A stretch of DNA of 64,000 nt from Octopus vulgaris (Eukaryota): positions 46,004,001-46,068,000 of the forward strand of contig OX597814.1 of NCBI GenBank assembly GCA_951406725.2, written 5' to 3'. Within the stretch, counting starts at the first letter, position 1; each line of letters begins with the position of its first letter. The notes beneath the pieces are model-generated. The model did no database searches, was not told the DNA's origin, and saw nothing but the letters and a program-made list of their open reading frames with translations. The position numbers and the translations under genes are program-made. Below, one piece after another: positions 32,815 through 59,400 of this stretch.

Positions 32815-33445
32815 TATATGTATATATATCTGTATATATGTATGTATATATATATATGTATGTATATATATATATGTATATATATATGTATATATATATC
32901 TATATATATATGTATATATATATGTATATATATATGTATATATGATGAAAGAAGTCACCCCCACCTGGTGGACGCCCAGGAGGAGGTTTTGAATGAGAAA
33001 CCTGCCCGGGAAGTGAACCCAGGTGCAAGTTCTCCAACCGGCAGCAAGGGCCATGGAGACGGAGAACCCGGTGAAGAGGTAGAGGGAGGAAGAAGAACTA
33101 AAAAAGGACTGGAAGAGCTAAAGGAAAAGAAAAAGCTCAAGCAGGACCAAAGAGTGAAACAACCAGGAGTAGAAGTGGAACCGCAAAGGATGGAACCAAA
33201 CAGCGCACACGGGTGTGTAGGTTCTACCTGAGAGGTTCCTGCTGGCACGGAAAGGAAGGTGCAGGCTGCCGCTTTGCACATCGGGGACCCTGCCACAGAG
33301 ACACGAGGCAGATGGACAAACCATCAACACAAAGAAAAGGGATGGACTACGCACCACCTGCCCCAAAGCGGAGGTACGCAGATGTTGTGCGCGCCACAAA
33401 CAGCCAACATGATGTTGTCGAAAGAGCAGCTGCTGAGCAACAATC

Positions 33446-33452
33446 TTTTTTG
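33446..33452 (+). promoter_or_regulatory. Candidate -1 frameshift slippery site U UUU UUG (LINE A; also at 47041-47047)
   Basis: ORF1 frame tct ttt ttg; the ORF2 frame is -1 and opens after TGA at 33434-33436. Confidence 0.55.
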
Positions 33453-55172: not shown

Positions 55173-56499
55173 GTATATATATATATATGTATATGTATAT
55201 ATATATATATATATATATGTATATGTATATATGTATGTATATGTATATATGTATGTATATATGTATATATATATATATGTATATGTATATATATATATAT
55301 GTATATGTATATATGTATGTATATGTATATATGTATATATGTATGTATATATGTATATATGTATGTATATATGTATATATATATATATATATATATATGT
55401 ATATATATATATATGTATGTGTATATATGTATGTATATATATGTATGTATATATATATATATATATGTATATATATATATATATATATATGTATGTATAT
55501 ATATGTATGTATATATATGTATGTATATATATGTATGTATATATATGTATGTATATATATATGTATGTATATATATGTATGTATATATATGTATATATAT
55601 ATATATGTATGTATATATATGTATATGTATATATATATGTATATATATCTGTATATGTATATATATATGTATATATATGTGTATATATATGTATATGTAT
55701 ATATATATGTATATGTGTATAAATGTGTATATATATGTATATGTATATATATATGTATATGTGTATATATATGTATATGTATATATACATATATGTATAT
55801 GTATACATATATATACACATATATATACATATATATATACATATACAGATATATATACATATATATATACATATACATATATATATACATATATATATAT
55901 ACATATATATACATACATATATATACATACATATATATACATACATATATATACATACATATGTATACATACATATGTATACATACATATATATACATAC
56001 ATATATATACATACATATATATATATATATATACATATATATATATATATATACATACATATATATACATACATATATATGTATACATATATACATATAC
56101 ATATATATGTATATGTATACATATATATGTATATGTATACATATATATGTATATGTATACATATATATGTATATGTATACATATATATGTATATGTATAC
56201 ATATATATGTATATGTATACATATATATGTATATGTATACATATATATGTATACGTATATATGTATATGTATACGTATATATGTATACGTATATATGTAT
56301 ATGTATACGTATATATGTATATGTATACATGTATATGTATACGTATATATGTATATGTATACATATATATGTATATGTATACGTATATATGTATATGTAT
56401 ACATATATATGTATATGTATACATATATATGTATATGTGTACATATATATGTATATTTATACATATATATGTATATGTGTACATATATATGTTTATGTA
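55173..56499. repeat. (TA)n tract with a polarity switch and a 20-bp unit array (gtatatgtatacatatatat)
   Basis: G-containing until ~55785, C-containing 55790-56090, 20-mer array 56090-56490. Confidence 0.93.
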
Positions 56500-59400
56500 T
56501 ATGCAAATTCTTCCGGAATGGAACCTGCTGGCATGGAGAAACAGGGGAAGGATGCAGGTTCGCTCATCCCAGGCCCTATGGAAATTGCATCAAACCCACT
56601 CGACCAAAATGCCTTAACCAAAACCAAGACCGAAACCAAAACCAGAACAAATACAAGCTGCCCCAGAAATATGCAGACATAGTGCGTAATGCCCCAACAA
56701 GGAGAAGGCGCACATTTGCAGAGGAAATGCAGACGGCGGCAGCAGAACAAAGAAATTTTGTGGAAATAGCAGAGAAAATTGTGGGACAACTGGCCTGGAT
56801 ACATCGTCTTCAGAGCCAGGGGCACTCACAACAGCACTCAAGACCACCACAATCAAGGGACCCAGGGTGGCCACCGCTGACACCAGCCCAGGTGCCACAC
56901 CGTCAGCCTTTATTGACACCCCGGGTGTCTCACCAGTGCTTCTGCTGAATGTCAGAGGTATGGTGAAACCCACTAATATGAGTAAAATTCCTTACCTTAG
57001 GGACTTAAGCACAAGCAACCATGCAATATGCATAGCGCTGACTGAAACGCACCTGTCAAGCAGTATAGCAGATGCAGAAATACACGTACCAAAGTATACT
57101 GTTTTTCGGTCAGACAGGAAGGAAAGAACTCATGGTGGGGTTGCCCTGTACGTCCGTGAAGATGTCACACCCATAGTACTGTTGACACACTCAAACTCAG
57201 TCTGTGACACACTGATAGTACACATGAAACAACCGAAAATAGTAATATGTGTCACATATCGGCCACCAGACACCCCTAGTCATGAAGGAGTGTTTGAAGA
57301 TAGCCTCAGAAGAATAGAAGAAGTCCTGGACAAACTGGACCAGGGTAACACCATTCTACTGCTGGGAGATTTTAACCTTCCGAAAGTCAAATGGCCAGAT
57401 GGCCATCTCCTCCCTGGAATGACATCACTTGAACAGAGACAGACAGAGTCCTTGTTGGCTCTCACACGCAAGTTCTTCATGGAACAAGCAGTGCTTCGGC
57501 CAACAAGAGCTGAGAATGTCTTGGACCTCTGTTTCACAAGCAACCCGATGCTCATCCACAACATAATGGTAACACCAACAATTCTCTCAGATCACAACTT
57601 AGTAGAGGTAATGATATATGGTATGAGAGAGTTAGTTGAGACGCAGCCATTAGAAAATACCACAGGCCTATCCAGTCTAAACTTCCATAAGGCAAACTGG
57701 AAGAAGATCAACGAAGAGATCCGAAAACATGACTGGAGTGACTTCATCACCACACAAGACACCAACACACATTTCCAACATTTCATGACAACAATACAGA
57801 ACATATGCCATAAGTTTGTCCCGGAGAAAAAAGCCAGCGGGCATAGGAATGTTATTCCCAGAGACAGGAAAATACTTATGAGGCGAAGAGCTAAGCTCTC
57901 GAAGCAACTGAATGCACGGCAGAGAAACAATGAGGGACTCCACCTGAAACTTTTTGAAACGGAAACTGCACTCAAACTTTCCTATGAGAAGGAGAGGGCA
58001 GAGAGAGAAGCCAGGGCCATAGAGAATATTAAAACAAACCCTAAAGCCTTCTTTAAATTTGCGAAAGAAACCACCTCGGTACACTGCAAGATTGGCCCAC
58101 TCTTTGATAAAAAGGGCTCTCTAACTGAGGACCCCCAAGGGATAAGTGAAATACTAAAGGAACAGTATAAAAGTGTGTTCACATCCCCTCTGGGGCACAT
58201 GCAAATCACAAACCCAGAAGTTTTCTTTGATGCCACAACACTCCAAAACCAAACAACAACCATCGACCACATAGACATAACAGAGAGGGATGTAATATCT
58301 GCCATAGAAGAAATGAGAATAAACTCAGCTGCTGGACCAGATGGATTCCCAGCAGTCCTCCTAAAAACATGCAGGCATGCCCTAGCGGGACCACTGAAGA
58401 GGCTCTTCAGTGGTTCCTTGGCTAACGGTAAACTGCCCAGGGCACTAAAAGAAGGCACCATATGCCCTATCCACAAAGGAGGGAGTAGAGCAGAGGCCAA
58501 AAACTACAGGCCAGTCTCCCTGACGTCACACATAAGTAAGGTCATGGAACGAATCATCAGAAAAAAACTGATCACGTTCCTCGAAGAAACTAACCGTCTC
58601 ACTGACACACAGCATGGCTTTCGCCCAGGAAGAAGCTGCCTTACGCAGCTGTTACAACACTACGACTGGGTACTGAAACAACTACTGGATCGCTCACAGG
58701 TGGATGTGGTATATCTCGACTTTGCGAAGGCCTTTGACAAAGTCGACCACGGAGTGATATGTCACAAATTACTCAGACTCGGCATAACAGGAAAAGTAGG
58801 TGAGTGGATACATGACTTCCTGAAGGACAGAAGCCAGATGGTTGCAGCCAATGGAGCCCTCTCGGGAAAGACACCGATAGCAAGCGGGGTGCCACAGGGC
58901 ACAGTCTTGGGACCCTTGCTGTTTTTGGTGGCGCTCTCTGACATGCCCTTGGTAGCACAAACAACATCCCTCACTAGCTATGCTGATGACACAAAGGTAG
59001 CACAGGCAATCAAAAACCCAGCTGATGCTGACCTTTTACAACAAGATCTGGATGCCATATACAAATGGGCTGAAGACAACAACATGCAATTTAATGCTGG
59101 TAAATTTCAAGCCTTACAATATCAAGCTGTAAACACATATACATTACAACACAACTATACTGGTCCAGGAGGGATCGAAATCCCAGTATCGAAATCAATA
59201 CGGGACCTGGGGATAGACATGAGTGACGATGCATCTTTTTCTTCACACATCGCAAAGGTGGCGACAATGTGCAGACGACTCACTGGCTGGATCATGAGGA
59301 CATTCCGGACAAGAGACTGCGAGACCATGTTGACACTATGGAGGACATTTGTCCTAAGCCGCCTGGACTACTGCTCCCAACTGTGGTCACCGCATAGTGT

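Follow-up and report, generated by a model that had tools for sequence, protein, structure and literature searches.

Programmed −1 ribosomal frameshifting, giving an ORF1 protein plus an ORF1–ORF2 fusion, is very probably the best explanation for how the two open reading frames (ORFs) are expressed in three families of long interspersed nuclear elements (LINEs) that reside in a 64,000-nt stretch of Octopus vulgaris DNA (in the following, the window). In each of these families, termed A, B, and C, ORF1 contains a slippery heptamer of the type X XXY YYZ. An earlier note on this DNA had claimed five such sites, and all five were recovered; each is in phase with the ORF1 codons, and ORF2 follows in the −1 frame: U UUU UUG (TTTTTTG) in the two main copies of family A (A1, 33446..33452, and A2, 47041..47047, both on the forward strand), A AAU UUU (AAATTTT) in the two copies of family B (B2, 56753..56759, forward; B1, 10095..10101, reverse), and U UUU UUA (TTTTTTA) in the copy of family C (55040..55046, reverse). 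From the heptamer into the endonuclease domain (APE) the −1 frame is open in A1, A2, B2, and C, as the note had it, and what it called a private deletion in B1 is the loss of 1 nt near 9887. The TGA at 33434-36, the TAA at 55059-61 past which the −1 frame of C opens, and the small hairpins at the A and C sites were likewise present. The −1 frame of A1 (33437..36556; 1039 codons) comprises a linker, the APE endonuclease, and a reverse transcriptase (RT), and the 3′ part of its ORF1 (33102..33608) a CCCH finger (weak Pfam match), the slip site, an amphipathic helix, and a tail. ORF1 ends at 47201-03 in A2, 56946-48 in B2, and 54932-34 in C.

Variation within family A was followed in contigs from four sequencing runs (X1, X4, X10, and X16; two of them guessed to be RNA), which drop rare variants. 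The ORF1 stop at 33513-15 of A1 is private to this copy, 33515 being a G in nearly all contigs placed on the junction, and ORF1 of the family therefore ends at ∼33606-08, at the start of APE. Among the 40 variants listed of 127, none falls between 33442 and 33499, and depth peaks at 33440-33471 in X10 and X16, which is only a hint that the slip region of family A is a conserved island.

An alignment search with APE yielded 88 related loci (the best 80 of 212 from metagenome contigs plus eight from genome contigs), of which 45 group with A, B, and C in an ORF2 tree computed by FastTree; the families are deeply diverged there, and the deep nodes are weakly supported. The ORF1/ORF2 junction is present in 31 of these 45 loci, with a canonical heptamer in ORF1 phase in 30 and G UUU UUC in the remaining one (L016). 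Thirteen loci were dropped because they start beyond the site or are truncated or disrupted at it (L015, L018, L022, L024, L027, L028, L033, L034, L039, L044, L049, L054, and L055). One clade member, L066 (238-620), lacks an upstream ORF1 and has an ATG of its own for ORF2; as an exception it stands outside the count. Subtracting five near-duplicates from the 31 junction loci and adding the three window families gave 29 dereplicated families, to which the following counts refer.

An in-frame X XXY YYZ heptamer is found at the junction of 28/29 families, compared with 2.2 expected from the amino acids and pooled ORF1 codon usage (nominal P ∼1e-32, ignoring shared ancestry), and the −1 phase is constant throughout (29/29); the comparison with synonymous expectation that the earlier note had proposed thus came out in favor of its claim. 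U UUU UUA accounts for 24 of the heptamers, U UUU UUG for two, and A AAU UUU and A AAA AAC for one each. In 26 families the site encodes Phe-Leu, and irrespective of which of six residues precedes this pair (Ser in 12, His in eight, Asn in two, Asp in two, otherwise Ala or Leu), the preceding codon has T in third position without exception, Phe is encoded only by TTT, and Leu only by TTA or TTG. That conserved Phe-Leu codons might generate U-runs by themselves, a worry voiced in the note, is not borne out: none of 103 control Phe-Leu pairs of the same elements is slippery (0/90 in ORF2 and 0/13 in upstream ORF1). Judged by these comparisons, the heptamer is conserved at synonymous positions, beyond what the protein would need. 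Because six different residues precede Phe-Leu and the codon is nevertheless always T-final, the pattern also seems hard to inherit passively.

A T run of this kind invites two other readings. The first takes T6-AG as a splice acceptor, by which ORF2 would be reached through cis- or trans-splicing, and AG does follow the T run directly in 22/29 families and two bases later in three more. However, the six Ts come without an upstream pyrimidine tract and are never interrupted by C in the 26 Phe-Leu families, another AG lies within 15 nt upstream in 19/29 families, and the site lacks an AG in families A and B. To fuse the ORFs, splicing would need a phase-2 donor, where a consensus GTRAG would be an ORF1 stop; none was found (22 lay in phase 1 and two in phase 0), and no GT-AG joint occurred among the 15 joints listed of 27 from the four runs. 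The heptamers of the distant lineages described below are not acceptor-like either. Splicing is regarded as very improbable. The second reading, slippage of RNA polymerase or RT on the T run, would add one base and bring ORF2 into frame in a minority of RNAs; it would yield the same fusion, and 26/29 families do have a run of six Ts. Yet family B and the distant lineages have heptamers other than long single-base runs, tRNA re-pairing is compatible with the phase in every case, and no indel was seen at 33446-33451 among the 12 listed of 23 from the same four runs, whose contigs drop rare variants. Slippage of this sort is, accordingly, a most unlikely source of ORF2.

The reading frames around the site conform to a −1 shift. 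From the heptamer to APE the −1 frame is free of stops in 29/29 families, over 34-221 codons. This openness is partly a matter of construction, because the search was delimited by the last stop in the ORF2 frame; in 26 families, however, the Phe-Leu helix motif gives the position of the slip site independently. Over the same 2970 overlap codons the +1 frame contains 187 stops. Going upstream from the heptamer, one meets the first −1-frame stop after a median of 4.5 codons, the background density of stops being 0.077 per codon. In 19/29 families, the stretch from slip site to APE encodes no Met. ORF1 itself runs on for 37-222 codons beyond the site, forming an amphipathic helix and then a Gln/Pro-rich tail across the whole clade, and the same stretch read in the −1 frame is a Ser/Thr-rich linker; the two ORFs overlap by 110-670 nt. 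No fused form was returned when longer proteins containing family A ORF1 were sought, which is weak evidence, since gene callers ignore frameshifts.

A canonical −1 frameshift signal includes a 3′ stimulatory structure behind a spacer of 5-9 nt, and folds after the site were compared in the 29 families; no stimulator common to all of them emerged. Family B has a long stem-loop downstream (z −2.1 and −1.8; in B1, z −1.8, it is predicted to begin 7 nt after the heptamer). In family C, the segment 54985..55039 (reverse strand) forms either a 7-bp hairpin abutting the heptamer (55023-55039) or a longer stem-loop after a 4-nt spacer, with z −1.1 at 100 nt and −2.7 at 60 nt. The hairpins to which the earlier note had drawn attention at the A and C sites were not supported as stimulators; the 8-bp hairpin of A1 (33448..33466, forward) overlaps the slip site and for this reason cannot be a downstream stimulator. 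Six families (L009, L017, L019, L020, L023, and L038) share a candidate H-type pseudoknot, in which a bulged stem of 9 bp begins 6 nt downstream of U UUU UUA and is joined by a second helix of 5-8 bp; when they were aligned together with two neighbors, 86.8% of cells paired, compared with 23-46% when the alignment was slid. The stem-loop of this subclade, considered as a wider feature of 16 families, failed (70.8% of cells paired, and its covariation was reached by 99/500 shuffles).

Some plant viruses supply the stimulator from a distance, and as in the long-distance frameshift elements of pea enation mosaic virus 2 (PEMV2) and red clover necrotic mosaic virus (RCNMV), the bases following the slip site pair well with the 3′ end in three loci, clearly in L012 and fairly in L017 and L025. 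Unlike in PEMV2 and RCNMV, such pairing is not general in the clade: among the 13 families with complete ends it is not significant in A (p 0.20) or B (p 0.20) and borderline in C (p 0.05), and the combined p was 0.015 in one of five tests and 0.13-0.54 in the other four. Pairing with the 3′ end as a general stimulator is thus not supported by this test. In L003 and L005, a same-strand similarity links the 30 nt following the slip site to the 3′ tip of the same element; it ranked first in both controls and is not a general feature of the families. It appears from the predicted folds that the stimulator differs between lineages or is absent, one subclade having a pseudoknot-like fold and families B and C stem-loops, with nothing evident in A.

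Several of the observations weigh against frameshifting. As to the heptamer, that of L016 is only near-canonical, the A AAA AAC of L081 sits off the Phe-Leu motif, and the A AAU UUU of family B is not T6-based; the chance probability of each of the latter two is ∼0.28. As to the structure, family A lacks a downstream fold (z 0.45 and −0.09), folds of the 60 nt that follow the site are, across the clade, only slightly more stable than those of shuffled sequences (mean z −0.66), and z is below −1.5 in 7/29 families after the site versus 4-6 of 28-29 in flanking windows. Covariation in the candidate pseudoknot is weak, amounting to one two-sided pair change that 264/500 shuffles reach. As to the frames, a Met occurs in the linker or among the first APE residues in 10/29 families, the ORF1 stop lies between −59 and +31 nt from the APE start in 29/29, and stop and start overlap (TAATG or TGATG) in 3/29 (L012, L019, and L032), with no such overlap in A, B, or C.

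The last two points are what would be expected if ORF2 were made mainly by termination-coupled reinitiation near the ORF1 stop, either AUG-independently as in L1 or at a stop-start overlap as in SART1, the heptamer being secondary or serving a minor product. The ATG at 33560 of family A, located 46 nt before the ORF1 stop and matched by a Met at the equivalent place in the relative P0001, points in the same direction, and L1 is known to tolerate loss of its AUG (accessible parts of PMC1965478 and PMC5972666). The caveat that the earlier note attached to this ATG holds in so far as it is present in A1; in part of family A, however, it reads GTG (7%, 7%, 55%, and 37% of depth in X1, X4, X10, and X16, respectively). 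Three overlaps among 20 A-final stops fit chance at a rate of 1/16 (p 0.13), the value being 0.0003 at the linker's own low ATG rate. Reinitiation leaves unexplained both the synonymous conservation of the heptamer and a −1 frame without stops over as many as 221 codons before ORF1 terminates. It is the serious rival and may be a second route besides frameshifting; as the main route to ORF2 it is judged improbable.

If −1 frameshifting is what the heptamer serves, a single LINE RNA would be decoded in the manner of gag-pol. The majority of ribosomes would continue in ORF1 to its stop and produce the full ORF1 protein with zinc fingers, amphipathic helix, and tail, and a minority would shift by −1 at the heptamer, where the helix begins. 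The latter would read on in the −1 frame through the Ser/Thr-rich linker into endonuclease and RT, so that the product would be a fusion of the N-terminal part of ORF1 with ORF2, devoid of helix and tail, at a low, fixed ratio to the ORF1 protein. The role suggested for the helix is probably oligomerization. We infer the slip itself, its efficiency, and the fusion protein from sequence comparison, which supports the gag/gag-pol-like pair of products that the earlier note had envisaged.

Heptamers of other types, likewise known to be slippery, occur in the same −1 phase in more distant lineages, which are CR1-like by motif resemblance rather than by a tree with reference elements. In L043, L045, L046, L065, and L086, U UUA AAC immediately precedes the ORF1 stop; G GGA AAC is found in L037 and L048, G GAA AAC in L036, L050, L057, L058, L059, and L068, and A AAU UUA in L042. 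In L071, which belongs to the G GGA AAC/G GAA AAC group, that site is closed by an ORF2-frame stop, and U UUU UUG occurs two codons after the frame reopens. ORF1 of L043 and L046 encodes a GDSL esterase, and among 24 protein relatives of this esterase ORF1, 13 end in Leu-Asn and five in Phe-Leu-x; at the protein level, these ends would be compatible with slip sites. One further relative, P0050, reads in frame into the start of APE and is either a natural fusion or a broken copy. The −1 heptamer is not universal, because the 43 loci outside the clade also include some in +1 phase (L067, L069, L070, L074, L076, and L078), some with in-frame stops (L062, L083, and L088), and two in −1 phase without a heptamer (L072 and L073). 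ORF2 of L067 (295-500) begins with ATG, and a 2A-like motif lies just before APE, as the accessible part of PMC3708506 describes for other LINEs. Taken together, it seems rather likely, if less so than for the clade itself, that −1 frameshifting is the main and ancient route to ORF2 in a large part of the CR1-like LINEs, with several heptamers at a relocatable site, an active enzyme that is an ORF1–ORF2 fusion carrying the zinc fingers (or esterase) of ORF1, and stimulators that vary by lineage, among them a pseudoknot and possibly the 3′ end of the element itself.

Several 5′-truncated LINE copies are embedded in the long (TA)n arrays of the window, which consists of AT-rich eukaryotic DNA. 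A1 (∼32944..36643, forward) is 5′-truncated, lies inside a (TA)n array, has an intact ORF2, and ends in a short tetranucleotide-repeat tail; A2 (∼46370..50240, forward) has a longer 5′ part and several frame breaks, and three shorter copies of family A are also present. B2 (56500..59760, forward) comprises the 3′ part of ORF1 and an ORF2 frame at 56690-59770. Its 3′ end is substituted at 59760 by a family A fragment, inside which a 592-nt segment is tandemly duplicated with 100% identity (59962-60553 and 60560-61151), which could be an assembly artefact. B1 (6880..10335, reverse) has an intact 3′ end and a second ORF2 frame break besides its deletion. B1 and B2 are 5′-truncated at the identical point (10335 and 56500), within the CCCH finger, at a place where element and TA repeat are similar. 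The copy of family C (51830..55170, reverse) contains the 3′ end of ORF1 and has an ORF2 frame break near 53300-53390 as well as later stops. ORF2 of all three families matches APE (PF14529/PF03372) followed by RT (PF00078) in Pfam, with APE-region identities to family A of 57% for B and 33% for C, and the ORF1 remnants of A and B give weak CCCH-finger matches. 5′ truncation, a short tandem-repeat 3′ tail, and the lack of long terminal repeats (LTRs) identify APE-type non-LTR retrotransposons. Family A occurs in 20 sequencing runs, under nine coded organism labels, at no less than 69% of sampled words. An 18-20 nt motif near the 3′ end is common to A (36580-36600) and B (∼6925-6945, reverse) and partly present at the 3′ end of L030; it is likely an RT recognition element.

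Elsewhere in the window, a Penelope-like element (27092-29263, forward) consists of a single ORF with RT followed by GIY-YIG. Two long forward ORFs without a Pfam match (15373-16467 and 16410-17741) are flanked by the arms of a near-identical 1.1-kb repeat (14322-15405 and 17079-18159), itself nested in a larger inverted duplication (11686-14321 versus 18216-20843). A comparison of the window with Rfam gave no match, no relative turned up in two scans of viral contigs, and the ESM Atlas returned only generic RT clusters.

Affiliation of the elements was judged from motifs, and the literature cited here and below was drawn on in its accessible parts (further sources: PMC10294476, PMC1925062, PMC1947958, PMC3849965, PMC11303007, and PMC11835228). 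As in the CR1 lineage of the Jockey superfamily (Metcalfe and Casane 2014, PMC4120745), ORF2 encodes APE and RT without an RNase H hit and the tails are short tandem repeats; several relatives have a PHD-bearing ORF1, again as in that lineage, and the RT motifs resemble CR1 entries of the RTclass1 set. The CCCH fingers set the present elements apart from that survey, the accessible text of which holds 0 mentions of them. Six motifs typical of the A-B-C clade were not found in the RTclass1 file, in which line breaks can hide matches. Membership in Proto2 was rejected by eye, the one fully shown Proto2 entry having different RT motifs. By motif resemblance only, placement as CR1-like is suggested.

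How ORF2 is expressed from bicistronic LINE RNAs is a long-open question that has been answered only for L1 and SART1, by reinitiation in both cases. Frameshifting has reportedly been suggested for some elements with overlapping ORFs such as TRAS1; we know of no clade-wide −1 signal in those suggestions. A conserved retrovirus-style slip site in dozens of families would be a third answer, that is, a known mechanism in an element class where it is not established. If true, the enzyme would be an ORF1 fusion, which would change the annotation of ORF2 starts and the design of elements for retrotransposition assays, and many predicted natural eukaryotic −1 frameshift cassettes would be added, some apparently without a local RNA stimulator. 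No report of −1 frameshifting at a LINE ORF1–ORF2 junction was found in the literature covered, which left out most subscription journals, Repbase Reports, and the primary SART1 paper and was in part accessible only incompletely.

The LINEs described here resemble human L1 and silkworm SART1 in the bicistronic RNA and, as predicted, in the dependence of ORF2 on ORF1 translation and the low ORF2 output (PMC2881922, PMC3708506, and PMC5972666). According to the accessible literature, L1 and SART1 reinitiate, across a 63-nt spacer and at a UAAUG overlap, respectively, and release a free ORF2 protein, whereas here the ORFs overlap by 110-670 nt, the slippery site is conserved, and an AUG is mostly missing. 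Drosophila HeT-A, likewise a non-LTR element, reportedly depends on a frameshift for its expression, the status of TART being given as unknown (PMC5009743, accessible part, which also sets out the heptamer rules). Unlike the shift proposed here, which joins ORF1 to the endonuclease-RT, that of HeT-A lies inside the gag-like gene of an element lacking RT. For the Paramecium non-LTR groups 1-3, recoding has been proposed from sequence as the route to ORF2; a +1 shift, reinitiation, or readthrough is considered, and no −1 heptamer is described in the accessible part of that study (PMC5405496). The closest parallel is retroviral gag-pol. The LINEs differ from it in possessing APE and RT without LTR, protease, or integrase, in having no shared stimulator, and in an ORF1 that goes on for 37-222 codons past the site. 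They agree with it, HIV-1 with its U UUU UUA being the example, in that the RNA-binding ORF contains an X XXY YYZ heptamer in its own frame, the enzyme ORF is in the −1 frame, and the product is, in the present case by prediction, a fusion.

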